Origin: a virus
Taxonomy: Duplodnaviria > Heunggongvirae > Uroviricota > Caudoviricetes
DNA: 64,000 bases
IMG/VR virus record: IMGVR_UViG_3300048672_000527
Span: 36,770-100,769 of that record
Strand: one strand, 5' to 3'
Numbering within the stretch: the stretch's first letter is position 1; the number at the start of each line of letters is the position of its first letter. Positions 6,164 to 40,144 of this stretch are shown here, one piece after another. The translations under genes and the position numbers were made by a program. Under the pieces are notes generated by a model. That model was not told the DNA's origin. It saw nothing but the letters and a program-made list of their open reading frames with translations, and made no database searches.

Positions 6164-7750
6164 TCAGAATGAAAATAAGGAACTAAGTCTAGCATTTAGA
6201 CTTGGTTCTATATTTCTGACGGGTGGTTTAACATTCACCTGAGTAACATTTTTACTGTTACTGATATTGTTATTAACGACGGTTGGAGACGATTGAGTTT
6301 TAGAAGACTCATTTGTTTTAGCCGTCGTTTCTGCTACTGCAATACTCTTCGCCAGTTCTGCACTTTGAGCTTCACGTGGTGTAGTAGTGGGCTTGCTTGC
6401 TCTTAGTGCTGCAGCTTGTTTATCTCGTTCTTCCATGATTTTCATAGGATCATCTTGAAATAAGTCTGCTGCCTTACCACCAAGCCAGCTACCAAGTTTA
6501 TCTGCTCCTAGAGCTTTTGCACCATAATACCCAGCAGCACCAGCACCACCAACTGCAAGAGCTGGTAAAGCAACACTACCAAGTCCACGTACTGCTGTTC
6601 CTGCGAGTCCACCTAAGGCCCCTGCACCGGCGCCAGCAATACTACTAAGTCCACTTGCTGCAGATGATGCGAGTCCACCCATAGAACTCATTAGACTCAT
6701 AATGGCATTGCCGTTACTTGCACTTGGCTTGTCACCAGATGCTTTTGAGAATGGTGCTTTTAATTTACTTGTCAATGCAGACAGTAAATTACGTTTTGGG
6801 TCTTTCTTTTCCTTCTTTGTTTCCTCAGAAGATTTTGTTAGTTTCTTAAGTTCTGCTAGTTGTTCTTCGTTAAGTTTCAATAACTCCTCTTGCATACCTT
6901 CTTTAACACCACGGATGACACCATCTTTTTGTTGAGGAGATAGTGGGCCAAGTTTTCCCTCTACACCTTTGATTGCTTCATCACCAGCGTTGGTACTATT
7001 ATACAGATGCTCAAGAAGCTCGGTGATAGATGCAGCCTTATCCCCGCTTGTGGTTTTCATTGTAAAAGGAAGACCATTATCCTTCTTTTTTGTCTTTGGT
7101 GCGGCGGTCTGTTTTGGTTTATCTGCGTTCTTGAAGAAATCAAGTTCAGATACAGTTAGGCCGCCTTCCTTGTTAACGGCGTTATCATAGAACTTAAGTT
7201 CATCAAGCTTTTCGTCGTTCAAGTCAAGAGTACCACCTGAACGAGACTTGACAGCTGATTGTTCTTTCTTTAGACCGTCAATTTTCTCGCGGAGTTTAAG
7301 AATCTGGTCCGCCATTTCTAGAGAAAGTGCAGCAGCTTCCTTCTCCATCTTTGCACGTTTCTTTTTATCCGTCTCAGCATTAATCAGATTAGTACGATCC
7401 TGCCCCTCGGCACTATACTTCATCCAGTCAGCTGCTGTCTCTAGTTTCTTGGTTTCTTTTGCCTTTGCTTCTTCTTTCTTTGCTACCTTGGCATCAGTAA
7501 TTGATGCAGCCAGACCCCCGATAAATGTGTCCCCACCCTTACCAAGAAGTTGAGCTACACCCTTAGCAGTAAACATTGATTTAACATTTCCCGCCATCTC
7601 TCCTGCCTTGGCTTTCAGAAAACCCCCAGCACCAAGTGGTTTGTCAGACTTCTTTCCTTCTTTCTCGATCCGTTTGGTTAGATCAAGAACAGCTTTAATT
7701 AGTTTGTCTGATTGCTTATATTTCTTATCTTCTGTAATGATGGTAGTCAT
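6164..7750 (-). CDS. Tape-measure / baseplate-hub (gp29-like) protein
   Basis: Long Lys/Glu/Ala helical protein with a Gly/Ala hydrophobic segment and a PTVVNNNISN..PPVRN C-tail; directly after gp26/gp51. Start reassigned to 7750. Confidence 0.6.
   Translation of the reverse strand: MTTIITEDKKYKQSDKLIKAVLDLTKRIEKEGKKSDKPLGAGGFLKAKAGEMAGNVKSMFTAKGVAQLLGKGGDTFIGGLAASITDAKVAKKEEAKAKETKKLETAADWMKYSAEGQDRTNLINAETDKKKRAKMEKEAAALSLEMADQILKLREKIDGLKKEQSAVKSRSGGTLDLNDEKLDELKFYDNAVNKEGGLTVSELDFFKNADKPKQTAAPKTKKKDNGLPFTMKTTSGDKAASITELLEHLYNSTNAGDEAIKGVEGKLGPLSPQQKDGVIRGVKEGMQEELLKLNEEQLAELKKLTKSSEETKKEKKDPKRNLLSALTSKLKAPFSKASGDKPSASNGNAIMSLMSSMGGLASSAASGLSSIAGAGAGALGGLAGTAVRGLGSVALPALAVGGAGAAGYYGAKALGADKLGSWLGGKAADLFQDDPMKIMEERDKQAAALRASKPTTTPREAQSAELAKSIAVAETTAKTNESSKTQSSPTVVNNNISNSKNVTQVNVKPPVRNIEPSLNARLSSLFSF
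6180..6213 (+). terminator. Hairpin downstream of gp32, inside the 3' end of the convergent gene
   Basis: GAACTAAGTCTA-gcatt-TAGACTTGGTTC (12-bp stem, one G-U) followed by an AT-rich stretch. Confidence 0.55.
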
Positions 7751-23690: not shown

Positions 23691-26600
23691 ATGACTATTA
23701 ATTTAAATGTCCCACCATACTATGATGATTTTGATGAATCAAAGGATTTTCATCAGATTCTTTTTAAGCCTGGTTATGCTATTCAGGCTCGTGAACTGAC
23801 ACAGATTCAGTCGATTATCAAGAATCAGATTGCTAAATTTGGTAATCACATCTTCAAGCATGGTTCAGTAGTTATTCCTGGTAATAGCTATGCTGACCTA
23901 CAAACACCGTTTGTTAAACTACAAACCACATATAGCACAACACCAATCGTTGTGGCTAACTGGCTAGGTAAGACTGTTATTGGTGTTAATGGTCTTAAGG
24001 CTGTGGTCAAACAAGTAGATAATACTGGTGGACAACCAACACTATATTTGGCATATCTAAATGGTGGCGGAAGTAGTTTGACGGCTGGGAATGAGTTCGC
24101 TGCCTCCGAAGAAATTTATATTGAAGACGCACCAACAGTCCGTGCATATGCTTTGGCTTCAAGCCCAACCGGTGTTGGTTCTGTTGCTTATATCAACAAG
24201 GGTGTTTACTACATCAACGGCACATTTGTGTCTGTAGCCGCACAATCTATTGTTATTTCCCCATATGACTCGCTGCCAAGCTGCCATGTTTTACTTCGCA
24301 TTGATGAAACTATCGTAGATAGCACCACAGATGATACATTGCTTGATCCAGCTCAAGGTTCTTATAACTATGCCGCACCTGGTGCGGATCGCGTCAAGAT
24401 TTCTCTGGTTTTGACCAGCTTACCACTGGTTGGTGCTGTCACAGACAACTACGTTGAAATTATGCGTTACGATAACGGTACTCTACAAGAGCATAGCCGT
24501 TACCCAAAATATTCTGAACTTGAAAAGTCTCTAGCCCGCCGTACATTCGATGAGAGCGGCGACTACGTTGTTTCTGGTCTAGATATTAAGCTAAAAGAGC
24601 ACCTGCGTACACAATGGAATTCTGGTGTATATGCAAATGGTAATTTGGATAAATTTGTTACCCAGGTTGATGCTGGTAAGGCATATGTTCAAGGTTTTGA
24701 AGTAGAACACCTAGATAAAGTTCTTATTGACCTAGATAAGGCCCGTACATCTGCGCACGTTAAGAATGTAGCTTCTACAATTCAATCTATGTATGGTCGT
24801 TACATGTATGTGACTTCTTTACAAGGTTTACCAGATTTTAAAGCACGCACACAATTTACTATCTGGAATGACAACGACTATGCAAATGGTAGTGCGACAC
24901 AGATCGGTACTGCGCGCGTTCTAGGTATTGACTATCTGGCCGGTGATCCAGCCACTGCTACTGCAATCTACAAACTTTACTACTCTGATCTAGTTCTGAC
25001 TGGTGGTTATACACTAGCAGATGCTGGTGGTATTCGCCCTTTGACTGGTTTTGTTACAGCTACTGTTCTAAACAAATACACAGTCCCAAATGCTAGTAAG
25101 GACTTCACAGTAGGTGAGTTAGTTAATAACGCGGATTCTAGCCGTTCTGCAACAGTACATCGTTACACACGAGCAGATGGTGAAGTTTATGTCTATAAAC
25201 ATGATCACACAAAACAGATTCCAAACGTAGGTGAAATTATCACCGGTGCCACAAGCACAGCAGTTGCAACTGTTAAACAACGTGATAATTCTATTGTTAA
25301 TGGTATTGCTCCAATCTTTACTGTTCCAGTTCCATCTATTAAGTCTACAAAGACTGCATCCAACACATACGATATGAAGTATGTTGTTTGGAAGACTGTA
25401 ACCGTAACTACGAACGGTTCTGGTAATGGTACTGCTACGATTACTGATGGTACATTCCGTACACCTGAGGCTGGTATCACAGTTGCTGCATATGTAGGTG
25501 CGTCTTATGGTTCTGGTGGTATTGTTACTCTTGATAAGATCAGCTTGTCAAATTCTACCACTATCCAAGTGACCGGTGGCCCTGCTTCTGCTACAGTTAC
25601 TATTCTTACACAAGTAGATAAGACTAACGTTCAAGCACGTACTAAGACATTAGTGACCAATAATATTCTTTCTGGTGTTACACCAGCTACGACTATTTCT
25701 CTAGGTAAGGCTGATATTTACCGTATTGTTTCTATTTTTGCTGGTGCGACTGATGTTACCTCTAGCTATATTCTAGATAACGGGCAGACCGACTACGCCT
25801 ACGGGGTTGGTACACTGACTCTAAATGGTACACTACCAACAAGTAATCTGACTATCACTTTTGACTACTTTTCACATAGCGGTACCGGTGATTACTTCAG
25901 TGTTGATTCGTATACAACATTGGGTTCCAATTATATCGCTCTGGTTCCAACGTACCGTTCTAAGACGACAGCAGATATTTACGACTTAAGTAATGTTCTT
26001 GACTTCCGACCACGTATTGGTGATGATGCATCTTATACATCTGGTACCGCGTTGATGAATGATACACCTGTTGTTGAAACAATTATCACATCTAGTGTGC
26101 AGTATTACGTGCCACGTATTGATTTGGTTTACATGGATCAAGCTGGTGCTGTGAGTGTTAAAACAGGTACACCAGCAGTTGTACCTCTAAAGCCATCTCT
26201 ACCAAGCGGCGTTATCGAGTTGTGCACACTGTCTATTCCTGCATACACTAATAATCTATCTGACATTGTTATTTCTAAGTCACGTATTGATCGTATGACA
26301 ATGAAAGATATTAATGGTCTACAAAAACGAATCGAGACACTTGAGTACTTCTCCACACTGAGTGCAATCGAGACAAACGTACTGAACTACAATGTGACCG
26401 ATGCAGTAACTGGTCTTAACCGTTACAAGACGGGTTATTTGGTAGATACATTTGATAACCCATTTGCTGTCTGTGATTACTACGATCAAATGAATCGTGT
26501 GTCATTTGCCACCGGGAATCTATCTGCACCTATGGAACAAAGCGATAGCTCGTTAAATCTGGCTACAGGTACTTCTAGTTACTATCAGTTTACTGGTACT

Positions 26601-28151
26601 CAACTAACGTTGCCATATACAGAAGTTGCGCTGATTAATCAGCCATACTCTACTCGTTTGACTAATGTTAATCCATTCTTGGTATTCTCTTGGCAAGGTC
26701 AAATGACTCTGACACCATCTAAGGATTCTTGGATCGTTACAGAACACCTACCAACTGTATACGACACAAAAACTGAAACTGTTAAGGTTCAGGTCCCACA
26801 AGTTGTTATTGTTGATACTGATCCACCAACACCTATTGTTCCTGCACCATTGGTACCAACCGCAAATATTACTTACTCTATTATTTCCGTAGGTGATATC
26901 ACAGTTAATGAGCAAGATGCAAGCGCAACGTTTAACGTAACTCGTACTGGTAATACAACCAAGGCAACACAGGTATCTTACTTTACTTCTGCTGGTACAG
27001 CTACTGCAGGTGCAGACTACACTACGACAAATGGTGTACTGAACTTTGCTGCTAATGAAACTAACAAGCAAATTACAGTTCCGATTCTCCAAGATACAGC
27101 TGTAGAAGGTTCGGAGACTTTCACTGTTACTTTGGCTCAAATCCAAGGTGGTGATGTTCTAGAAAAGGCCGTTGCAACAGCTACTATTCTCGATGATGAT
27201 AGTACATTGGCAACCGTTCTGAATACACCGTTCTTCACTACGACCAATGAAGGTACCACCAAGGTTATTACAGTGACACGTAGTGGTAACGTGTCTGGTA
27301 CAAGTTCTGTTAACTATACAACGGCAAATGCTACAGCTACAGCTGGTACTGACTACACGGCCACATCTGGTACACTAACATGGACTGCTGGTGTGACTAC
27401 ACAGACAATTTCTGTTCCAATTACAGCAGACTCTGCAACCGAAGGTAATGAGTACTTTGTTATTAACTTCAGTAACTTTGTTAACTGTACTGGTCAAGTT
27501 GGTATGAGCGGTATTCAAGTTCAGATCAATGATACTTCTTTGGCAGCCGTTTCAAATGTTTCTATTCCATCTGCAATAGTTGTATCCGAAGATGCCGGCA
27601 CAGCTTCTATCACTGTTAGTAAGACAGCAGGTGCAGCATGTTCTGTTAACTATAGTATTTCTGCTGGTTCTGCGAGTGCTGGTTCTGACTACACTAGCTC
27701 ATCGGGAAATATTAACTTCTTGACAACTGGCGTAGAAAGTTCTACAATTTCTGTTCCAATCATTAACGATGCAATTTCTGAAAATGATGAGTCATTTACT
27801 GTTACAATTGTGGCATTCTCTGGATCACCAACCATTGGTAATAGCACATGTACAGTGACAATTTCTATTAACGATTGGTTCGTTGGACCTCCAACATCTC
27901 TGGCATATCAACCAGTTGTGAACGTAGCAGCTATCACATACTCTGATACTTCTTGGAGAATTAACACTGCGAACTCTATTGCAGGTATTACAACTCCGGT
28001 TACTCAACCTTTGACAACACCGGTTACTCAAGTTGCTACACCAGTTATTCCTGTAGTTGTACCACCAGCAGTTACCGCTAATGTGGCGGCTTCACCATCA
28101 AAGTCTATTAACTGGAAACTGGCTCTGTTAGACGATCAAATCAACTTGTAA
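23691..28151 (+). CDS. Large virion structural protein (DUF4815/VrlC-like N-half) with three Calx-beta domains
   Basis: PYYDDFDESKDFHQILFKPGYAIQARELTQIQSI, LARRTFDESGDY, YYVPRID, RIETLEY, GYLVDTF; three T.NE..TATAG.DY..SG.L.F..I.VPI.D..E..E.F repeats. Confidence 0.8.
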   Translation: MTINLNVPPYYDDFDESKDFHQILFKPGYAIQARELTQIQSIIKNQIAKFGNHIFKHGSVVIPGNSYADLQTPFVKLQTTYSTTPIVVANWLGKTVIGVNGLKAVVKQVDNTGGQPTLYLAYLNGGGSSLTAGNEFAASEEIYIEDAPTVRAYALASSPTGVGSVAYINKGVYYINGTFVSVAAQSIVISPYDSLPSCHVLLRIDETIVDSTTDDTLLDPAQGSYNYAAPGADRVKISLVLTSLPLVGAVTDNYVEIMRYDNGTLQEHSRYPKYSELEKSLARRTFDESGDYVVSGLDIKLKEHLRTQWNSGVYANGNLDKFVTQVDAGKAYVQGFEVEHLDKVLIDLDKARTSAHVKNVASTIQSMYGRYMYVTSLQGLPDFKARTQFTIWNDNDYANGSATQIGTARVLGIDYLAGDPATATAIYKLYYSDLVLTGGYTLADAGGIRPLTGFVTATVLNKYTVPNASKDFTVGELVNNADSSRSATVHRYTRADGEVYVYKHDHTKQIPNVGEIITGATSTAVATVKQRDNSIVNGIAPIFTVPVPSIKSTKTASNTYDMKYVVWKTVTVTTNGSGNGTATITDGTFRTPEAGITVAAYVGASYGSGGIVTLDKISLSNSTTIQVTGGPASATVTILTQVDKTNVQARTKTLVTNNILSGVTPATTISLGKADIYRIVSIFAGATDVTSSYILDNGQTDYAYGVGTLTLNGTLPTSNLTITFDYFSHSGTGDYFSVDSYTTLGSNYIALVPTYRSKTTADIYDLSNVLDFRPRIGDDASYTSGTALMNDTPVVETIITSSVQYYVPRIDLVYMDQAGAVSVKTGTPAVVPLKPSLPSGVIELCTLSIPAYTNNLSDIVISKSRIDRMTMKDINGLQKRIETLEYFSTLSAIETNVLNYNVTDAVTGLNRYKTGYLVDTFDNPFAVCDYYDQMNRVSFATGNLSAPMEQSDSSLNLATGTSSYYQFTGTQLTLPYTEVALINQPYSTRLTNVNPFLVFSWQGQMTLTPSKDSWIVTEHLPTVYDTKTETVKVQVPQVVIVDTDPPTPIVPAPLVPTANITYSIISVGDITVNEQDASATFNVTRTGNTTKATQVSYFTSAGTATAGADYTTTNGVLNFAANETNKQITVPILQDTAVEGSETFTVTLAQIQGGDVLEKAVATATILDDDSTLATVLNTPFFTTTNEGTTKVITVTRSGNVSGTSSVNYTTANATATAGTDYTATSGTLTWTAGVTTQTISVPITADSATEGNEYFVINFSNFVNCTGQVGMSGIQVQINDTSLAAVSNVSIPSAIVVSEDAGTASITVSKTAGAACSVNYSISAGSASAGSDYTSSSGNINFLTTGVESSTISVPIINDAISENDESFTVTIVAFSGSPTIGNSTCTVTISINDWFVGPPTSLAYQPVVNVAAITYSDTSWRINTANSIAGITTPVTQPLTTPVTQVATPVIPVVVPPAVTANVAASPSKSINWKLALLDDQINL

Positions 28152-30643: not shown

Positions 30644-30837
30644 AGATTTTAGATGCCAATGGTGCGGTAATACCCACTATTGAGCGAGCAAAAAATGGTG
30701 CCATTGTTGTCAAGGACGATGGCTCGCTTAATAAATACTTGAGTGAAAAAAAGCAAGCAACGGAAGTCGTGGAACTGAGAGACAAAGTTAAACGACTTGA
30801 ATCTCTCGTAGAACAATTACTGAAAAAACATGGCTAA
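30640..30837 (+). CDS. Small coiled-coil virion-associated protein
   Basis: TTG 30640 overlapping the upstream stop; R..NGAIV..D..Y motif and C-terminal heptads. Confidence 0.6.
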   Translation: MKILDANGAVIPTIERAKNGAIVVKDDGSLNKYLSEKKQATEVVELRDKVKRLESLVEQLLKKHG

Positions 30838-31450
30838 TCTTACATACCGAAACTCAGCAACACCATCTATACCAGGGAGTACGACCGTTAAAGGACTACC
30901 TCTGAGTAATGATGAAATTGACGCCAATTTTAAAGCTATTAATGACGAAGTTGCCACCAAGGCTAATATATCTGCTTTAGCTGGTTATACACCATTAGCC
31001 GGTACAGGAGCAACAGGTATATGGGGTATCAGTATCAGTGGTAATGCTGCTACTGCAAGTTCTGTTACTGGTTCACAAGCTACTCTGTTAACTCGTCTCG
31101 AAGCCAATCTCGATAATAAGCGAGTTGTTACGGCCAGTACGACAACTACAACAATTGATTTCAATAACCCAGTTGACAAGGCCACGTTTATTAAATTGAC
31201 TATGGCTAGCAACACAACTCTGACGTTTACCAATATTCCTACAGGCGGTTCTGGTGAAGTCTTTAGCTGGACCATGGAAGTAGTCAATGATACAACTGCG
31301 GGGCGTGCATTGGCATTTGGTAATACAATTAAGTGGGCTGGTGGTATTTTGCCACCAAGAACCACCGCCGCAAATGCCGTGGATATTTGGTCATTCTTTT
31401 ACGAGAATTCTGTACTTTATGGTTCTCTAGCTATTGCTGATGCAAAATGA
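30830..31450 (+). CDS. Tail-fibre-associated protein
   Basis: N-terminal KGLPLSNDEIDANF anchor; C-terminal KWAGG..P..T....D..SFF domain shared with 36894..37565. Confidence 0.7.
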   Translation: MANLTYRNSATPSIPGSTTVKGLPLSNDEIDANFKAINDEVATKANISALAGYTPLAGTGATGIWGISISGNAATASSVTGSQATLLTRLEANLDNKRVVTASTTTTTIDFNNPVDKATFIKLTMASNTTLTFTNIPTGGSGEVFSWTMEVVNDTTAGRALAFGNTIKWAGGILPPRTTAANAVDIWSFFYENSVLYGSLAIADAK

Positions 31451-32430
31451 GTTTAGGTAAACTTCTTTTTCGTGAAAAAACTAATGCAGCTGTTAAAACT
31501 AACACTACGTTTAATGCACCCGGAAATTTCCCGATTCCATATGGTAAAACAGTAGTTAATGTTGGCGGACGTGGTGCTAGCGGTAACACAACGACGTATC
31601 CGTATGCCAGCACTAACCCTACCACATATCCATATGTGAGTACAAACCCGTCCGCGCCTGGCAATGCATATTACAACTATGTGGCTGGTAATGATGTATA
31701 TACGACATCACCAGGTAATGCAAAATACAACACAACACCTGGAACAGCTAATTATAATTATGTAGCAGCAAGTTACCCATACGCGAGTACTAACCCTACT
31801 ACATATCCATATGCTGGTACTAATGCTACGATGTATGCAGGTGGTTCGTCCGTTGATACCGAATACTTAAATCCAGGGGCCCCACCAAATATCTATGGTG
31901 CCGCAGGACCAAATTGGGGTCCTGCTGCTTCTGTTCCATCCCCAACAACTAATACTGCCGGGGCTTCTAACGGGCCTGTGTATAGAACTATCTATACATA
32001 CTATAATGTTAATTCAACTACACCAGGTGGTCCAACATATAATACCGTAGCTGGAACAGCTAATTATAATTATGTAGCAGCAAGTTATCCGTATGCTAGC
32101 ACTAACCCTACTACATATCCGTATGCTGGTAGCAATCCTACTACATACCCGTACAGTTATACTAATCCCGCTTCATACCCATATGCAGGAACTAACCCAG
32201 CAACACCGGGAAATGCTAATTATAGTACATCCCCGGGAAATGCTAATTATAACTATATCCCTGGTAATTCAGGATCAACTGTAAATATCGGTGGGGTTAC
32301 ATTCCCAGGTGGAGCAAGTGATTCTTTAGCACCAGTTGTTCCAGATACTGCCACTATTTTACAGTATTCTGTATCAGGTTTTACAGTTACAGTGCCACCA
32401 GGGGGTTATGTCACAATTCAGAATGTTTAA
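31447..32430 (+). CDS. Tyr/Pro/Thr/Asn repeat protein (putative fibre-tip or modified substrate)
   Basis: Eight (T/S)YPY(A/V/S)xxN(P/A) decamers and six (P/A)G(N/T)AxY motifs between beta-rich termini. Confidence 0.8.
   Translation: MSLGKLLFREKTNAAVKTNTTFNAPGNFPIPYGKTVVNVGGRGASGNTTTYPYASTNPTTYPYVSTNPSAPGNAYYNYVAGNDVYTTSPGNAKYNTTPGTANYNYVAASYPYASTNPTTYPYAGTNATMYAGGSSVDTEYLNPGAPPNIYGAAGPNWGPAASVPSPTTNTAGASNGPVYRTIYTYYNVNSTTPGGPTYNTVAGTANYNYVAASYPYASTNPTTYPYAGSNPTTYPYSYTNPASYPYAGTNPATPGNANYSTSPGNANYNYIPGNSGSTVNIGGVTFPGGASDSLAPVVPDTATILQYSVSGFTVTVPPGGYVTIQNV
31741..32133 (+). repeat. Intragenic direct repeat
   Basis: GGAACAGCTAATTATAATTATGTAGCAGCAAGTTA (35 nt) exact at 31741 and 32053, continuing as a synonymously diverged repeat. 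Confidence 0.85.
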
Positions 32431-32439
32431 GGAGTTATT

Positions 32440-33039
32440 ATGTTATTTGGAAAATTTGTTCCACGTATGGAACCTTTTTGTATATGGGGTGAAGGATTTG
32501 ATTTGGAACAATGTGATAGAATCAAACAACACGGTGAAATGTCAGAATTCATGAAGGCCAGAGTTGGTGGTCGCGGCCCCGATGATATTGGCCAACAAGA
32601 TGAAGCAATCAGAAAAACAGATATTACATGGATAGACCACAGAGAAGATACAGCATGGATTTTTAATAGGATAAATGAAATTGGTGCAATTGTAAACTAT
32701 GACAAATTTCACCTCGATTTAAAATTCTTTGACGGATTCCAATATTCTAAGTATGGAGTAGCTGGTCATTATGATTGGCACATCGACACTTTTGAAAACC
32801 CAAGAGAAGGTAATTTTAGAAAACTATCATTTTCTTTAATGCTTTCAGATCCAAATGAATATGAAGGTGGCGAATTGCTACTTTGCCCAAACGGTGATAA
32901 TAATAAGCCAATTACACTAAAACCAAAAAAGGGTGAATTGGTTGCATTTTATTCTCATGTACCACACAAAGTTGCACCTGTCACCAGTGGTGAAAGAATT
33001 ACTTTAGTAACATGGGCTCTAGGACCTAAGATAAAATGA
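32440..33039 (+). CDS. 2OG-Fe(II) oxygenase, prolyl-4-hydroxylase/PKHD type
   Basis: YDWHIDT (HxD), RKLSFSLML, YEGGEL, PHKVAPVTSGERITLVTW (distal His, 2OG-binding Arg); AAGGAG RBS. Confidence 0.92.
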   Translation: MLFGKFVPRMEPFCIWGEGFDLEQCDRIKQHGEMSEFMKARVGGRGPDDIGQQDEAIRKTDITWIDHREDTAWIFNRINEIGAIVNYDKFHLDLKFFDGFQYSKYGVAGHYDWHIDTFENPREGNFRKLSFSLMLSDPNEYEGGELLLCPNGDNNKPITLKPKKGELVAFYSHVPHKVAPVTSGERITLVTWALGPKIK

Positions 33040-33761
33040 TTAGTATTTTTAAGAATGATATAATTGAATTTTTCTGTACACCTGATAAATTTGATGTGAT
33101 TCCCAAACCAATTCCTGCATTCAAGATGATTCCAGAATGGTTTAAAAAGATACAACCAACGAGTGCTGATAATCTAAGGGATCATGCAGGTGCAAAATCA
33201 ATGACTGCTAAAAAGTGTATGCCATTACTTGATGCAATGTCAACTGGATATATTATTCCATTATTTGCAGATATTAATGTGCGCACCAATAAGGATGGAT
33301 CCTTGATAGAAATTGGACCACCAAACTTGTTTGGTGATGTTATATCGTTTCACGACAAGGAGCAACTTGGGGGAAAAACATCACCAACATATCCAGGTAA
33401 TGCAATCAAATTTATTAACCACTGGGTTATTAAAACTGCTCCAGGTTATAGCACACTATTTGTTCCACCATTAAATCATATTGAACCACGATTCACGTGT
33501 CTTAGTGGTCTAGTTGATACTGATACGTATGTAAAGGAAGTTAATTTTCCGGCTATTTGGCACGCCAAAGATTATGACGGTCTTGTGACTGCTGGTACAC
33601 CATTAGTCACAGTTATACCTGTTAAAAGATCTGATTTAACAAGTGAAGCACCTGTCCGAGTGATGTCTGAAAAAGAACGTCTGAATATTATTAAGATTCA
33701 AAATCAACAAGCAACAAGACGTCATGTTTATACTAATAAATTGAGAGAACCTAGAAAATGA
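33036..33761 (+). CDS. Conserved phage protein, paralogue A (DUF6065-like, uncertain)
   Basis: IPEWFKK, KKCMP.LDAM.TGYIIP, KFINHWVIKTAPGYS.LF.PP, GLVDTD, AGTPL..VIP. Confidence 0.7.
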   Translation: MISIFKNDIIEFFCTPDKFDVIPKPIPAFKMIPEWFKKIQPTSADNLRDHAGAKSMTAKKCMPLLDAMSTGYIIPLFADINVRTNKDGSLIEIGPPNLFGDVISFHDKEQLGGKTSPTYPGNAIKFINHWVIKTAPGYSTLFVPPLNHIEPRFTCLSGLVDTDTYVKEVNFPAIWHAKDYDGLVTAGTPLVTVIPVKRSDLTSEAPVRVMSEKERLNIIKIQNQQATRRHVYTNKLREPRK

Positions 33762-34516
33762 GTTGGTTTAAAAAAGATACACCTAAGTTTAGATTTAAAT
33801 CATTTATTGGTGATTTTTCTGTAGCTACACCAGTGACAACTGCTAGTAGTATTCGGACACCGTGGATGAAAAAGCAAGATAAAGATCACAAGTTCCAGAA
33901 ATGTCCTGGAATGTTAGATTACGCGAATGCTGGATATATAATCACAGCACATGCTGATATTCACATTAAGGCTAATAAAGTAGCATGTAATGTTATCGTA
34001 GAATCCGCACATTTACCGCCACATGAAGGTGAAATGTTAATCCCAAGACCATTTGATTTTAAAATAGTCGAGGGACTTGCACCAATACAAGATGGTGTTG
34101 TAAAGTGGGCCGGGAAAATTCCACTACCATGGTCAGTTCAGGCTGACAAAGGTTGGAGCGGTTATACAATGCCAGCTCTAGTTCATTCTAATTTTTTAGA
34201 TAAAATCTTTGTTTATCCCGGCGTAGTTGATTATGATAATTTTCACACATTGAATTTTGTATTTTCGCCTATCAAAGAGTGTGAATTTACTATTCCAGCG
34301 GGAACTCCATTATTACAGATTATTCCATTCAAACGTGAAAAGGTTTTTGCTGCAGAGTGTGGTAAAGCTACGGAAAAGGAAAAAGATAAACACTTATTCA
34401 ATACTGCTTCACGGTTGAGTCATTATTACAGAAAATTTTTAAGTAGTAAGAAACAATACACAATGGAGTGCCCATATAAACACCGTGAAGTAGGCGGTGC
34501 AGATAATCTTGGCTAA
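33758..34516 (+). CDS. Conserved phage protein, paralogue B (DUF6065-like, uncertain)
   Basis: KCPGMLDY..AGYII, KIPLPW, PGVVDYD, AGTPLLQIIPFKRE; same motif order as 33036. Confidence 0.7.
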   Translation: MSWFKKDTPKFRFKSFIGDFSVATPVTTASSIRTPWMKKQDKDHKFQKCPGMLDYANAGYIITAHADIHIKANKVACNVIVESAHLPPHEGEMLIPRPFDFKIVEGLAPIQDGVVKWAGKIPLPWSVQADKGWSGYTMPALVHSNFLDKIFVYPGVVDYDNFHTLNFVFSPIKECEFTIPAGTPLLQIIPFKREKVFAAECGKATEKEKDKHLFNTASRLSHYYRKFLSSKKQYTMECPYKHREVGGADNLG

Positions 34517-35456
34517 TATATACGTTAGTGTTTGTAGCTACCGTGATCCGTTATTATTCCAGACTGTTGCTAGTTTATTAAGTACAGTCTCTGGGAAACA
34601 CAATGTAGTAATTGGTATATTCGAGCAAACAGCACTTCAAGATTCTTTAGTTAAAACTCACCCCGAGTTACTAGAGAAATTTGACTGCACAGAAAATATT
34701 GAATATCAGAGTAGTATCAAGTTGGGGGTTCTTTACAAGAGAATTGATCCAGAATATTCTGATGGTGTTGGTTGGGCCCGAAATATTAACCAGCATCAAA
34801 TGGACCCGTCAATGTATGATTTCGTATATCAAGTTGACTCACACATGATATTTGATAAAAATTGGGATGATTTTCTAGTTCAAAACTATACTGCAGCAAC
34901 GGTTCTTGCCGGTCACAAAAATGTAATAATCACAAACACTTGTAAAGTATTTTGGTTTGAAACTGAACAGCTAATAGTTCAACCCACTGAACCAACTGGT
35001 GGGATGTGTAAATTTCAACACGAGTTCCCTAAAAATTGCATAGTGACCGCTACTGGTGTACATCGACCAGTGTGGCCATTAGAAGAAGCAAATCATTTAT
35101 TTGCAGGTAATTCATTTTTCCCTGTTTCTTGGGTCAATGAAGTCGGTAATGACCCGATTATGTTCTTTGATGGCGAAGAACATCTTTTGACACTCAGATC
35201 GTTTCTTGCCGGCTATAGAATGTACTTCAGTACTGAACTGTGGTCTTATCACTATAGAGATACACATAAATATATCACCAAACAGTGGCATGAACCGATT
35301 ACTTCTACATTAAGATATTGTAGGAATGTTCAGAGAAGTCAGAAAAGACTCAAAGAATATATTGATTCACGCTCTGATGATGAATTAAAACAATTTGCAG
35401 ATTATACGGGAATTGATTATAAGAACCGCATAATTTTAGATAAGGCACGAATATGA
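34497..35456 (+). CDS. GT-A glycosyltransferase, GT60 / Skp1-hydroxyproline GlcNAc-transferase-like
   Basis: IYVSVCSYRDP, GVGWAR, QVDSHMIFDKNWD (DxH), LFAGNSFF, DP.MFFDGEE..LTLRSF..GY match the pattern I recall for GT60 (Pfam GlcNAc) enzymes. Confidence 0.82.
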   Translation: MQIILANIYVSVCSYRDPLLFQTVASLLSTVSGKHNVVIGIFEQTALQDSLVKTHPELLEKFDCTENIEYQSSIKLGVLYKRIDPEYSDGVGWARNINQHQMDPSMYDFVYQVDSHMIFDKNWDDFLVQNYTAATVLAGHKNVIITNTCKVFWFETEQLIVQPTEPTGGMCKFQHEFPKNCIVTATGVHRPVWPLEEANHLFAGNSFFPVSWVNEVGNDPIMFFDGEEHLLTLRSFLAGYRMYFSTELWSYHYRDTHKYITKQWHEPITSTLRYCRNVQRSQKRLKEYIDSRSDDELKQFADYTGIDYKNRIILDKARI

Positions 35457-36494: not shown

Positions 36495-36894
36495 AAATGA
36501 TAACATTGTTCTATTTGGTAGTTTAGCGGCATCTGTTCCATTACTGGTAGCAATAATATCCAAGGTTTATAAGAATGTCCGTACCGATAGTGCTTCACTA
36601 GTTGGTATACAAAGTGATGCGCAACGGATCAAGGATATGCAAGAATCTTTGCGTCTTAAGGATCAAAAGATTGATGAAAAAGATGCACTGATATCAAAGC
36701 TTGTAGAGGATAAGGTTGATCTATCTGGTAAGGTAGGTAAACTTGAAACTGAACTAGCACACGCTATGGAACAAATTGCATATTTGACTAACTTAGTTGA
36801 ATATCTGGTCAAACAAAACGGGGGAAAGATTCCTCTAGACTTGGTAATTCAAGGAGCTAAATTCCACGATATGCTTGACAGAGAAGGTGACTAA
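36484..36894 (+). CDS. N-terminal TM anchor + coiled-coil protein
   Basis: Hydrophobic residues 8-26 followed by heptad-rich helix. Confidence 0.7.
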   Translation: MTFENDNIVLFGSLAASVPLLVAIISKVYKNVRTDSASLVGIQSDAQRIKDMQESLRLKDQKIDEKDALISKLVEDKVDLSGKVGKLETELAHAMEQIAYLTNLVEYLVKQNGGKIPLDLVIQGAKFHDMLDREGD

Positions 36895-37565
36895 TGGCCA
36901 AAATAGTTGCCGATCGTGTCTTAGAGACAAGCACCACAACTGGCACCGGAGCCTATACACTAGCTGGAGCTATTAGCGGATTCCGTGCATTCTCAGCTGT
37001 ATGTGCCAATGCCGATACAGTTGAATACTATGCCGAGGATGTTAATGCATCTGGTATGCCTGCTGGCGGGTGGGAGGTTGGTTTAGGTACCTGGGGTACA
37101 GGTGGAGTTCTAACACGAACTACAATATACCAAAGTAGTAATGCGGGGGCTGCTGTATCTTGGACTGCAGGAACACGCCGGATTGGTTTAGTAGTTCCAG
37201 CAAAATCATTACCATATCTTGATAACACCGGAAATTTGGTATTAAGTCAAGGTGCTTTAAGAGAGAAGACCGGTACAATCACCGCTAATAACATTGATTT
37301 AAGTACCGGTAATTACTTTGCACAAACAATATCTGGTTCTACCACTTTCACGGTTTCAAATACTGCTGCATCAGGAACAATCTCAAGTTTCATTTTTGAT
37401 CTCACCAACGGTGGTTCAGCTGCTATTACTTGGTGGTCTGGCGTTAAATGGGCGGGTGGTGCTGCACCAACACTAACCGCTGCCGGGCGAGATGTTCTTG
37501 GATTCTTTACACGTGACGGCGGTACTACTTGGACGGGCCTAGTATTGGGTAAGGATGTTAAGTAA
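36894..37565 (+). CDS. Tail-fibre-associated protein
   Basis: ADRVLETSTTTGTGAYTLAGA..GF N-terminus, WEVGLGT, C-terminal KWAGGAAPTLT..GRD.LGFFT domain. Confidence 0.75.
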   Translation: MAKIVADRVLETSTTTGTGAYTLAGAISGFRAFSAVCANADTVEYYAEDVNASGMPAGGWEVGLGTWGTGGVLTRTTIYQSSNAGAAVSWTAGTRRIGLVVPAKSLPYLDNTGNLVLSQGALREKTGTITANNIDLSTGNYFAQTISGSTTFTVSNTAASGTISSFIFDLTNGGSAAITWWSGVKWAGGAAPTLTAAGRDVLGFFTRDGGTTWTGLVLGKDVK

Positions 37566-40144
37566 TGTCAGTCAACGATATTATAATGTCCGCTGCTGGC
37601 GGGTCGAGTGCAACACCATACGTTGATGATGTATTTGGTACGTATATATGGACTGCACCAAATATTAATAAAGTTCCGTCTCCGAGTGATTTAACAGATA
37701 AGATCGTTAGCTATACAATCTTACCCGATGTTAATACAACCACACCAATCGCGCATCCTCGCCCCGGTTATGCTGGCCCAATAGACATTATTCTTGCGGG
37801 CAGAAGTTCTGCAGTTAACGCTTATTGGTCACCAGATGCTCAAGGTGGAACCGACGGCTCAGGACAGGTTGCTCGTTGGACGTATACATGTTTAGGCGAC
37901 GAAACTAGCTTTAGTATCACACAAACAAACAAAGATTCTAATGCTGGGATGATGGCATTGAATATTATTGGTGGTGTGAATAATGGTAAAACTTTGTGTG
38001 TTGGTTCTGCACGAGAAGGAAATAGTTATGGTGCTTCGGCAGCTGCAAATGATTTTGTTTCTTCTTCTACACTAACTACTGCCCCGCTGCAATTCAGCGG
38101 GGCTTGTAGACCATATAATGCAACAATTTCTTATTCTGATGCTACATCATATGACCCGGCGGCCCCGGCTTCTTATGGTAATGCCGCAGTCGATTTTGTA
38201 GTAGACTCGAATTTAACAATTAGATTAAACGGTTCTACAAGCCCTGGTGGTATATGGTTTAATAAAAATAATACTGATAGTTCTTTTGGTATTGCGGTCA
38301 AGACTGCACCACCTGGTAATAACTCAGCAATAAAACTGGGTGCAGCAGTATTAATTTTCCCTGCTAAGACAACAGGTAATAAATCTTTAGTTTGGGCAAA
38401 GTGCCGTAATAACTCAGTCAATAACCAACTCTTTACATCAGTAAAAAATGGGGTTTTAGTATCTGATGGTACAGCAGCGATTGCAAACTCACCTTATTTT
38501 ATTGATGCTAACGGATTAACACTTTTTAACGGAAATGCCCAAACCAATAATATGGTGGCATGGAGTTGGAAGGCAGCTCCAAACTTTCTTGATATTGTTA
38601 CATATACCGGTAACGCGATAGCAGGTAGAGCGATATCTCACACACTGGGTTCTGTTCCCGGAATGATTATTGTTAAAAGAACTGATGTTGCCGGCGGTTA
38701 TTGGAGTGTATACCACCGTGGAACGGCATCTGGTACAGAAATGTTCCTACAAACAACTAATGCACTTAGTTCATCTGCATATTTTGGTAACGGTTCGATC
38801 GGTATTGCTCCCACTTCTACTACTTTTACTATAGCAGGTAACACAGATATAAATGCATCCGGCGGATCGTATATTGCATATCTTTTCGCACATGACACTT
38901 CTGGTAATGGTATTATTCAATGTGGCACGTTTTCTGGTGCTTCCGGAACAGTAGTTAATCTTGGGTGGGAACCACAGTGGGTTCTCTGGAAAAATTCCAC
39001 AAACATTAATAGCTGGGGTATTGCAGATATTACACGCGGTATGGCAAAAACACCACAGGCAACTGCATATCTATTGGCAAATGCAGCAAGTCAAGAAGCA
39101 GCTGCATCTGGTAATATCATCGATATTAACGCTACAGGTTTTATTGCCAATCTTGGTGCTCCTGGTGACACATATATTTATATGGCAGTGCGCAGATCAA
39201 ATAAGCCACCAACAAGTGGTACACAGGTTTACAATGCAATAGCTAGAACAGGTAATGGTATAGCTACATCCATTACCGGTGTTGGATTTGCACCAGATCT
39301 AAGTTTATCCAAATCTAGAAATAATGCATCAGGTGAAACATGGTATGATAAATTAAGAGGTAAAAATTACATAATGTGGTCCTATGTAACATCAGCAGAA
39401 AATACATCTACATCTGATGGTTTAACTTCTTTTGATATGGATGGTGTTTCTGTTGGAGCTGATGCTAGTGGAGCATGGATTAATACAAATACATGGACTT
39501 TTATAAATCATTATTTCAAACGCTCACAAAATGTTTTTGATATATTGTGCTGGACCCAGACTGTTCCCGGGGCACCATTTCAATGTCAGACTATTAATCA
39601 TAGTTTAGGTGTTACTCCAGAGTTAGTTATACATAAATCACGCTCAGGGGCTGGTGACAATTGGTATGTCACAGGTAGTATATTAGGTACAGGAAATAGA
39701 TTACTTCTGAACGGGACATATGCAATTGCAGCGAATGGTGCATCCGGTAATGCTGCATATACATCAACCACAGTGACACTACCATGTGAGCAAGGGTCCG
39801 GTGCAACATACGTGGCATATCTATTTGCATCTAAAGCAGGTATATCAAAGATCGGTAGCTATACTGGGAATGGTACAACACAAACTATCAATTGTGGGTT
39901 TACCACTGGAGCACGATTTATTATGATTAAGCTTACGGATAGTACAGGTGATTGGTATGTCTGGGACACAGTAAGAGGTATTATTGCAGCAAATGATCCT
40001 CATATTTCCTTAAATACTTCAGTTGCAGAAATAACTACAGATGATTCTATTGACCCCGATACTTCTGGTTTTATAGTTAATCAATTGTCGGCTACGAATA
40101 TTAACGTATCAGCTGGTACATACATTTACTTGGCGTTTGCATAA
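37565..40144 (+). CDS. Tail fibre / receptor-binding protein with repeated beta modules
   Basis: Repeated FLDIVTYTGN..I.H.LG..PG.II.K, YIAYLFAH, GIIQCG.F.G, GW.PQW...K, KIGSYTGNG..I.CGF modules. Confidence 0.75.
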   Translation: MSVNDIIMSAAGGSSATPYVDDVFGTYIWTAPNINKVPSPSDLTDKIVSYTILPDVNTTTPIAHPRPGYAGPIDIILAGRSSAVNAYWSPDAQGGTDGSGQVARWTYTCLGDETSFSITQTNKDSNAGMMALNIIGGVNNGKTLCVGSAREGNSYGASAAANDFVSSSTLTTAPLQFSGACRPYNATISYSDATSYDPAAPASYGNAAVDFVVDSNLTIRLNGSTSPGGIWFNKNNTDSSFGIAVKTAPPGNNSAIKLGAAVLIFPAKTTGNKSLVWAKCRNNSVNNQLFTSVKNGVLVSDGTAAIANSPYFIDANGLTLFNGNAQTNNMVAWSWKAAPNFLDIVTYTGNAIAGRAISHTLGSVPGMIIVKRTDVAGGYWSVYHRGTASGTEMFLQTTNALSSSAYFGNGSIGIAPTSTTFTIAGNTDINASGGSYIAYLFAHDTSGNGIIQCGTFSGASGTVVNLGWEPQWVLWKNSTNINSWGIADITRGMAKTPQATAYLLANAASQEAAASGNIIDINATGFIANLGAPGDTYIYMAVRRSNKPPTSGTQVYNAIARTGNGIATSITGVGFAPDLSLSKSRNNASGETWYDKLRGKNYIMWSYVTSAENTSTSDGLTSFDMDGVSVGADASGAWINTNTWTFINHYFKRSQNVFDILCWTQTVPGAPFQCQTINHSLGVTPELVIHKSRSGAGDNWYVTGSILGTGNRLLLNGTYAIAANGASGNAAYTSTTVTLPCEQGSGATYVAYLFASKAGISKIGSYTGNGTTQTINCGFTTGARFIMIKLTDSTGDWYVWDTVRGIIAANDPHISLNTSVAEITTDDSIDPDTSGFIVNQLSATNINVSAGTYIYLAFA

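Follow-up and report, generated by a model that had tools for sequence, protein, structure and literature searches.

Gene organization of the locus

The DNA analyzed here, referred to below as the window, is a 64-kb part (positions 36,770 to 100,769) of the IMG/VR virus record IMGVR_UViG_3300048672_000527, which is 164.8 kb long and estimated to be complete. The phage is a T4-like myovirus without psbA. Seven co-oriented genes in the window encode, in order, a fiber protein, a repeat protein (Rep), a PF13640 oxygenase, two DUF6065 paralogs (DufA and DufB), a PF11397 glycosyltransferase (GT), and a fiber chaperone (Table 1), and the evidence presented below suggests that the enzymes of this cassette modify Rep. 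The six junctions between the genes comprise four 4-bp overlaps of the ATGA type, one 9-nt gap, and one 20-nt overlap. Between about 11.3 kb and 48 kb of the window, nearly all long open reading frames (ORFs) are on the + strand and include baseplate wedge, large fiber-like, terminase, and sheath genes; the cassette lies inside this single-strand structural block, between the fiber protein and the fiber chaperone. Scans for the T4 late-promoter motif, for sigma-70 promoters, and for terminators gave no signal above chance.

The locus had previously been interpreted without database searches as a hydroxyproline O-glycosylation system (the sequence-only reading). All of the ORFs on which that interpretation was built were present on the + strand where it had placed them. 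Its view of the flanking genes as a fiber-type protein and a fiber chaperone was borne out by the phrog_9017 and PF16778 matches, and the two proteins for which it could offer no function, described there as paralogs, both matched phrog_7084 (Table 1).

Table 1. Genes of the cassette and its flanks, with positions in the window
Feature	Position	Strand	Evidence
Fiber-type protein, 206 aa	30830..31450	+	phrog_9017 "tail fiber protein," E 7e-6; stop overlaps rep start
Repeat protein (Rep), 327 aa, proposed substrate	31447..32430	+	ORF, composition, DNA repeats
Fe(II)/2-oxoglutarate oxygenase, prolyl 4-hydroxylase (P4H)/PKHD type, 199 aa	32440..33039	+	PF13640, E 1.3e-20; phrog_61, E 4e-35
DUF6065 protein (DufA), 241 aa, dUTPase-like fold	33036..33761	+	PF19541, E 6e-7; phrog_7084, E 8e-60
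Divergent DUF6065 paralog (DufB), 252 aa	33758..34516	+	phrog_7084, E 6e-23
Putative Gnt1-family GT-A glycosyltransferase, 319 aa, GTG start	34497..35456	+	PF11397, E 2e-23
Tail fiber assembly chaperone, 139 aa	35453..35872	+	PF16778 Phage_tail_APC, E 1.8e-8; PHROG tail fiber assembly families

Conservation of the cassette among related phages

IMG/VR was found to contain 365 stretches encoding relatives of DufA and, in an alignment-based scan, 147 encoding relatives of the GT; a scan of IMG/VR with the single GT protein found nothing. The sample centered on dufA comprised 155 cassettes falling into 44 DufA clusters at 90% identity. The oxygenase gene was directly upstream of dufA in all 44 clusters, and rep was directly upstream of the oxygenase gene in all 42 clusters that could be assessed, two apparent exceptions proving to be artifacts of overlapping ORF ends. 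The sequence-only reading had proposed co-occurrence in T4-like metagenomic contigs as a check on its idea, and for the repeat gene and the oxygenase this association was found. dufB followed dufA in 41 of the 44 clusters, and the GT gene was adjacent in 26.

The same order was seen in loci centered on the GT. Here dufB directly preceded the GT gene in 73 of 80 IMG/VR loci and in 4 loci from the European Nucleotide Archive, and the order fiber-rep (one or two copies)-oxygenase-dufA-dufB was found upstream as far as each contig reached. Four exceptional loci had the order fiber-rep-rep-oxygenase*-GT-rep-oxygenase-dufA-dufB, where the asterisk marks a variant oxygenase copy described below, and in three others the GT gene stood alone beside PhoH and a GH19 domain protein. 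A homolog of the fiber-type protein precedes rep in most related loci, its equivalents in two of them (L003 and L004) carrying PF26209 (Phage_phiTE_241_C), and a homolog of the chaperone closes the GT-less cassettes of the closest relatives.

The genomic setting of the cassette differed between phages: it was found beside baseplate genes, before the neck genes gp13/gp14 (in one case on a cyanophage-like contig that also encodes a heme oxygenase and a bilin reductase), in cyanophage-like contigs, and in a 60-kb phage. The linkage to rep can therefore not be put down just to common descent of a single region. Such an arrangement goes far beyond what chance would produce; it recurs in more than 150 metagenomic phage loci, and many aquatic relatives of the phage encode it.

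The invariant core of the cassette consists of rep, the P4H-type oxygenase gene, and one or two DUF6065 genes, with the GT60 gene as an accessory module that here lies between dufB and the chaperone gene. The accessory status of the GT is indicated by three observations. It is adjacent to the core in 26 of the 44 clusters, leaving 18 without an adjacent GT. In G001, one of the lone-GT loci and the nearest relative of the window as judged from the Rep N terminus (71% identity), the GT gene is 36 kb from the fiber-rep-oxygenase-dufA-dufB-chaperone cassette. Finally, a search that does recover the GT of the window found no PF11397 gene in two core-bearing genomes rated complete, G005 (263 kb, with terminal repeats) and G009 (60 kb). 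The place of the GT among the core genes, as first proposed, was accordingly given up.

The GT and its relatives

Residues 8 to 294 of the GT matched PF11397 ("GlcNAc") with a score of 83.9 bits (cutoff, 21). We take PF11397 to be the Pfam family built around the Skp1 N-acetylglucosamine (GlcNAc) transferase Gnt1 and to correspond to CAZy family GT60. The domain was present in 120 of 120 GT homologs among the matches listed. An AlphaFold model built from 31 homologs had a predicted local distance difference test score (pLDDT) of 87.8, and its best fold match in Swiss-Prot was Gnt1 itself, the Dictyostelium [Skp1-protein]-hydroxyproline N-acetylglucosaminyltransferase (E value of 6e-18, TM score of 0.68, 21% identity), followed by polypeptide N-acetylgalactosamine (GalNAc) transferases. 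In the PDB the top 50 fold matches were all GT27 polypeptide GalNAc-transferases. The motifs SYRD, GVGWAR, DSH (D114 and H116), H..AGN, GEE, and YH and residue H252 were invariant in the 31 homologs, and D114, H116, and H252 are predicted to bind the metal ion (DxH motif). The PF11397 score, the Gnt1 fold match, and the invariant motifs, several of which the sequence-only reading had listed, show that its GT60-type family call was right; both the sequence and the model support assignment as a Gnt1-family, polypeptide-type GT-A enzyme. No signal peptide or membrane segment was apparent.

Hundreds of metagenomic proteins are 38 to 48% identical to the GT. Among prokaryotes, a search of 185,579 species genomes with the GT alignment yielded a relative on only one 4.4-kb contig of a metagenome-assembled genome. 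In 50,697 cultured phage records there was no match to the GT protein of the window, to its Rep protein, or to the 4-kb block as DNA; a search of these records with a related GT yielded only 24%-identical GTs of jumbo Xanthomonas and Stenotrophomonas phages, whose gene context (carbamoyltransferase) is unrelated. The GT clade thus looks phage restricted.

The oxygenase

H114, D116, H176, and R186 of the oxygenase, which make up the HxD..H..R motif, were conserved across 28 homologs, and a profile of these 28 sequences was compared with the PDB. The best matches were PKHD-type hydroxylases (3dkq, PiuC; about 1e-14), followed by the P4H of PBCV-1 (5c5t; 2e-10), algal (Chlamydomonas, 2jig) and Bacillus P4Hs and Pseudomonas PPHD (1e-5 to 1e-6), and only then Dictyostelium PhyA (6t8m; 4e-4). 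The ranking of PhyA below the PKHD-type, PBCV-1, and other P4H matches places the oxygenase in the prolyl hydroxylase superfamily but not as a PhyA ortholog. The P4H-superfamily enzyme with an intact motif that had been read from the sequence was therefore upheld by the PF13640 and profile matches, but its likeness to PhyA was not. Relatives with 31 to 41% identity are the common "2OG-Fe(II) oxygenases" (2OG, 2-oxoglutarate) of cyanophages and of pelagiphage HTVC008M. Neither the TET/JBP nor the AlkB family was among the Pfam or PDB matches of the oxygenase. DNA base modification of the TET/JBP-like kind was considered and ranked low, both enzymes belonging to protein-modifying clades.

In Pelagibacter phage HTVC008M (L175), an uninterrupted run of four genes with the annotation 2OG-Fe(II) oxygenase, together with one annotated as a "ferrochelatase," lies between baseplate and neck genes at 56.8 to 59.7 kb; the product of the first gene of this run is 35% identical to the oxygenase of the window. 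In two of the variant cassettes (L056 and L072, both at 6432-7007), the oxygenase encoded immediately before the GT has MPARV or MPSRI in place of MPHRV. Judged from these sequences, such copies, which keep HxD and the Arg and have lost the distal iron-binding His, may be pseudo-enzymes or adaptors.

The repeat protein

Rep of the window is rich in Thr (15%), Tyr (12%), Asn (12%), and Pro (12%). Its gene contains seven 30-nt units encoding decapeptides of the YPYASTNPTT type, a 56-nt repeat in four copies, two of which are 27 nt apart, and a 139-nt internal segmental duplication. An N-terminal region of about 45 aa and a C-terminal region of about 40 aa are conserved and flank the decapeptide repeats, repeats of the PGNANYN type, and a central nonrepeat segment. 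Rep had no Pfam or PHROG match. It nevertheless represents a protein family, whose members keep both termini (consensus ..KTW...RGTTTFNAPGN..IPYGR...TVSGRGGSGN at the N terminus and ..YPDN.NYPV.VPPGGQIVVKIE at the C terminus) while the internal repeats are wholly different between lineages: TNPTTYPYAS, PGNATGTFNIV, NGPQNFNPAT, YNAQNVAS, and YNTNYNVAYPVANQP. The longer members have a central nonrepeat segment, often with two Cys residues.

Across 72 Rep proteins, the composition ranged from 4 to 19% Pro, 11 to 37% Ser plus Thr, 8 to 25% Asn, and 8 to 20% Tyr plus Phe, and the proteins were nearly uncharged (0 to 4% Lys plus Arg and 0.4 to 6% Asp plus Glu). The sole element shared by all repeat types was an aromatic residue followed by Asn, often with Ser or Thr before it. 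In the YNAQNVAS lineage, Pro made up 4.4% of residues and occurred in just 28% of the units, and Ser or Thr was found in 88%. Since Ser/Thr is more constant than Pro in the repeat units, hydroxyproline is not favored over Ser/Thr as the sugar acceptor. Rep was longer and more repetitive in cassettes with a GT (median of 547 versus 313 aa), a difference that is confounded by phylogeny.

A possible relationship of Rep to PF21722 (Gly_rich_2) was also noted. The language-model neighbors of Rep were PF21722 clusters at a similarity of 0.83, which is at the level of a lead only, and hhalign aligned the Rep N terminus with a PF21722 protein of a relative in the expected register at a nonsignificant E value of 0.064. 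In G001 (L092:10488-12242), two tandem PF21722 proteins are encoded shortly downstream of the fiber chaperone; their N termini resemble that of Rep, not significantly. In variant cassettes L056 (2796-5012) and L072 (2608-4884), the first rep ORF ends in a Hint/intein-type domain starting CFVAGTLV (PF01079, 4e-7; PF14890, 7e-7), and the ORF right after it begins with more repeats and ends in the usual Rep C-terminal domain. The Hint-type domain could be an intein, could mark a split gene, or could be an autoprocessing module inside a fiber repeat protein.

The genes around rep bear on whether Rep is the substrate at all. The enzymes might instead modify the adjacent fiber protein, some other protein of the virion, or a protein of the host (of its envelope, or a receptor), with Rep as only a structural neighbor. 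Such a role would fit the finding that the GT gene can lie far from rep, as in G001, the existence of oxygenase-DUF6065 pairs with no rep nearby, and the arrays of related 2OG oxygenases that aquatic T4-like phages carry without an obvious substrate gene. We regard it as improbable, however: rep directly precedes the oxygenase gene in every assessable cluster, in several genomic neighborhoods and often with translational coupling, and the low-complexity, hydroxyl-rich make-up of Rep is typical of heavily modified substrates.

The DUF6065 pair

DufA and DufB were 25% identical (alignment A3). The DUF6065 family is large (2,259 representative clusters at 50% identity), and some of its members are tandem DUF6065-DUF6065 fusions, suggesting that the two paralogs work together. 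Among 26 phage homologs, DufA had 35 invariant columns, including D66, H106, D161, D163, K59, K197, R198, C61, and C155, and the invariant Asp, His, Lys, Arg, and two Cys residues suggest a binding or active site. A prediction of a DufA-oxygenase complex scored 0.00, which counts neither for nor against binding.

The AlphaFold2 model of DufA (pLDDT of 93.7) has the beta-barrel fold of trimeric dUTPases. VIA-align matched it to ten chains of dUTPases or dUTPase-related proteins with Z scores of 8 to 10 (Z of about 10 across some 120 residues), whereas the next fold, an unrelated one, scored 3.5; Foldseek matched dUTPases with an E value of 2e-4. The structural matches included nonenzyme proteins with this fold, namely, human cytomegalovirus (HCMV) pp71 and gammaherpesvirus ORF10. 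DufA differs from the trimeric dUTPases in its extra N- and C-terminal elements and its paralogous partner. By sequence, there was no match of DufA to PF00692 or a dUTPase hidden Markov model and no significant link to dUTPases; the sole segment aligned by hhalign was an octapeptide at a motif III-like hairpin (GLVDTD), with a nonsignificant E value of 0.16, and inspection of the DUF6065 alignment consensus by eye showed no counterpart of dUTPase motif I, II, or V.

Outside the cassettes, a lone DUF6065 protein is encoded beside thymidylate synthase and DNA polymerase in haloarchaeal tailed viruses, and DUF6065 is found near ribonucleotide reductase in cyanophage S-RIM4 (L090). Neighbors of this kind suggest a link to nucleotide metabolism and not to fibers. 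DUF6065 homologs with 32 to 40% identity are conserved in Hafunaviridae-type haloviruses, such as Halovirus HSTV-2 (L007, gene 40), and in about 50 haloarchaeal tailed virus records. In Syn9, an oxygenase-DUF6065 pair lies near halogenases and other oxygenases without rep. L077 (8000-14400) and the L075-L089 group have a further oxygenase-DUF6065 pair, encoded on the opposite strand within an enzyme island, again with no repeat protein nearby in L077. Judged by eye from their translations, the neighbors of the pair there resemble a sulfotransferase, a fatty-acid desaturase (with His boxes), two oxygenase-like proteins, and a Cys-rich protein of the CxxCxxCC type. Bacterial and archaeal contexts of DUF6065 (haloarchaeal fusion proteins, a Bacteroidota genome beside nuo genes, and short contigs) were uninformative.

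We therefore weighed whether nucleotides, DNA bases, or a small metabolite might be the targets of the oxygenase and the DUF6065 proteins, and perhaps of the GT, the site in the fiber region being an insertion hot spot. The dUTPase/dCTP-deaminase-like fold, the retained G-h-h-D-x-D hairpin resembling motif III, the gene settings in the haloviruses and S-RIM4, and the lack of a canonical dUTPase or dCTP deaminase in the phage of the window all speak for such a function. It would, however, leave the invariant adjacency of rep and the oxygenase gene unexplained, and it is difficult to reconcile with an oxygenase of the P4H type that has no TET/JBP or AlkB matches, with a GT whose fold neighbors all act on polypeptides, and with the lack of a significant dUTPase match or of motifs I, II, and V in DUF6065. 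On this evidence, we think it quite unlikely.

The nonenzyme matches raise another alternative, which we rate lowest of those considered: that the DUF6065 pair, and possibly the oxygenase, mainly help to assemble or scaffold an oligomeric repeat fiber, like the nonenzymatic dUTPase-related proteins of herpesviruses, and that only the GT, where present, modifies Rep, on Ser/Thr. Besides pp71 and ORF10, the fiber chaperone at the end of the cassette, the lost iron ligand in some oxygenase copies, and the common [ST]-aromatic-Asn motif of Rep are in line with this idea. The many invariant polar residues of DufA argue for a binding or active site instead, and the main-cassette oxygenases retain the full HxD..H..R motif.

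Other genes near the cassette

A second small fiber-type protein, encoded at 36894-37565 of the window, has a C-terminal domain in common with the product of the gene at 30830 (phrog_9017, E value of 2e-11), indicating that the fiber-type module is duplicated downstream of the cassette. It is directly followed by a gene for an 859-aa DUF7483 protein (37565-40144). Just upstream of the fiber region, a 1,486-aa structural protein with DUF4815 and three Calx-beta domains (E value of 6e-55) is encoded at 23691-28151.

Proposed function of the cassette

Taken together, we consider it probable, though with modest confidence, that the enzymes hydroxylate the adjacent, fiber-associated Rep protein and, in this phage, also O-glycosylate it with N-acetylhexosamine (HexNAc). 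This proposal, drawn from gene order and synteny, catalytic motifs, and the assignment of the proteins to families and folds, is made because both enzymes belong to protein-modifying clades, because Rep is their only constant neighbor, and because its composition is that of a heavily modified, hydroxyl-rich, uncharged substrate. The block would thus be a tail-fiber-associated protein modification module, with Rep, encoded just upstream of the enzymes, as the substrate. The oxygenase would hydroxylate side chains of the repeats, Pro being the likeliest target where present and Asn or another residue a possible one. The DUF6065 pair would be obligate partners of the oxygenase, and might bind a uridine nucleotide, act as an oligomeric scaffold, or have a new catalytic activity on the repeats. 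The cytoplasmic Gnt1-family GT, added to the core here and in about 60% of the sampled lineages, would then transfer HexNAc to hydroxyl groups of Rep, the donor by family analogy being UDP-GlcNAc, from which GlcNAc would pass to the peptide hydroxyl by a retaining alpha-transfer. What results would be a component of a fiber or whisker that carries hydroxyl groups and sugars, has almost no charge, and recalls the extensins. In this scheme, we infer the substrate, the modified residues, the order of the reactions, and the location in the virion.

As acceptors of the sugar, hydroxyproline, as in Skp1, and Ser/Thr, as in mucins and with other GT60 enzymes, appear about equally likely. Hydroxyproline is favored by the Skp1 analogy and by the linkage of oxygenase and GT. 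Cores that lack a GT, the occurrence of the GT apart from the core, the lineage poor in Pro, and the [ST]-aromatic-Asn motif favor Ser/Thr as the acceptor or at least indicate that hydroxylation serves an end of its own. The earlier proposal of hydroxyproline glycosylation of the repeat protein was consequently retained only in part: the enzyme families and their co-occurrence with rep agree with it, but the variable Pro content of the repeats gives hydroxyproline no preference.

Several of the observations above weigh against modification of Rep as proposed. Rep is the most likely substrate, but it was assigned from gene neighborhood only. The nearest solved relatives of the oxygenase are PKHD-type enzymes, and the oxygenase copies next to the GT gene in the variant loci lack an iron ligand. 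The GT is not adjacent in 18 of the 44 clusters, is distant in G001, and is missing from G005 and G009, and one Rep lineage is poor in Pro. DufA has the fold of nucleotide hydrolases, and DUF6065 occurs with nucleotide-metabolism genes in haloviruses and S-RIM4 and, paired with an oxygenase, without rep in Syn9 and the L077 island. The proposal accounts least well for the dUTPase-fold pair.

Comparison with known systems

The cassette would belong to the class of hydroxylase-linked protein O-glycosylation systems, as represented by Skp1, the extensins, and mimivirus collagen. It shares with the Skp1 pathway of Dictyostelium and Toxoplasma, in which PhyA acts before Gnt1, the pairing of a cytoplasmic P4H-superfamily oxygenase with a PF11397-family GT-A enzyme, for which Gnt1 was the best Swiss-Prot fold match. 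The phage, however, has no Skp1, its oxygenase is not a PhyA ortholog, and its candidate substrate is a long, cis-encoded repeat protein; the GT is optional in the family, whereas the two dUTPase-fold proteins are obligatory. The Skp1 analogy, on which the sequence-only reading had relied, is not a full account of the system, as it does not explain why the oxygenase gene directly precedes dufA in every cassette cluster. The mucin-type O-GlcNAc/GalNAc transferases resemble the phage GT in their GT-A fold and DxH metal motif and act on Ser/Thr of low-complexity, hydroxyl-rich repeat proteins, but they are secretory-pathway enzymes, often equipped with lectin domains, whereas the phage enzyme is a bare catalytic domain. 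Among these transferases, those of Trypanosoma cruzi and of the Dictyostelium Golgi belong to GT60 and the polypeptide GalNAc-transferases to GT27.

Among viruses, mimivirus L230 is a lysyl hydroxylase/glucosyltransferase that modifies a collagen-like fiber. This protein and the PBCV-1 P4H resemble the phage system as virus-encoded 2OG hydroxylases acting on a repeat protein, in mimivirus together with a glycosyltransferase. Those systems are found in eukaryotic giant viruses and involve collagen or PAPK repeats and hydroxylysine-glucose, in contrast to the aromatic-Asn repeats and GT60 enzyme of the bacteriophage. The extensins and other hydroxyproline-rich glycoproteins of plants and algae, which are modified by P4Hs and hydroxyproline O-glycosyltransferases and contain YXY motifs, have similarly nearly uncharged repeats rich in Pro, Ser, Thr, and Tyr with YPY/YNY, and the algal P4H was among the profile matches of the oxygenase. 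They differ in their glycosyltransferase families and lack an Asn-rich, aromatic-Asn core, so that the likeness is one of possible working and not of homology. In the glycosylated virions of mycobacteriophages, virion proteins are likewise decorated by phage glycosyltransferases encoded beside structural genes; to our knowledge, these systems have no hydroxylase and no dedicated repeat substrate and use other GT families.

A bolder version of our proposal, which we put forward as a doubtful possibility, is that aquatic tailed phages have a hitherto unnoticed protein maturation system of three parts, in which a DUF6065 heteromer with the dUTPase fold and the P4H-type oxygenase form a new protein-modifying machine acting on the cis-encoded aromatic-Asn repeat protein. 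The phage-restricted GT60 clade would then add sugars, and the resulting extensin-like or mussel-adhesive-like fiber, a hydroxylated glycoprotein, would tune adsorption or shield the virion.

Significance

The literature searched yielded no paper on DUF6065 or on the function of PiuC and no description of a phage hydroxylase-GT60 system or of hydroxyproline glycosylation in a phage; matches to "GT60" with phages were off topic, apart from one bare CAZy listing. If Rep is modified as proposed, the cassette would provide the first case in phages of O-glycosylation that is linked to a hydroxylase and aimed at a dedicated virion-associated protein encoded in cis, and the numbers of DufA and GT relatives in IMG/VR indicate that it would be abundant and not a curiosity. 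One branch of the 2OG-Fe(II) oxygenases that are so numerous in the genomes of marine T4-like phages would thereby gain a defined function, and the DUF6065 family would have a first point of entry. Glycosylated fibers would be relevant to host range, immune recognition, and phage engineering. Finally, the finding that the Gnt1 family, familiar from the Skp1 pathway, includes a large clade carried by phages bears on the origin of the eukaryotic pathway.

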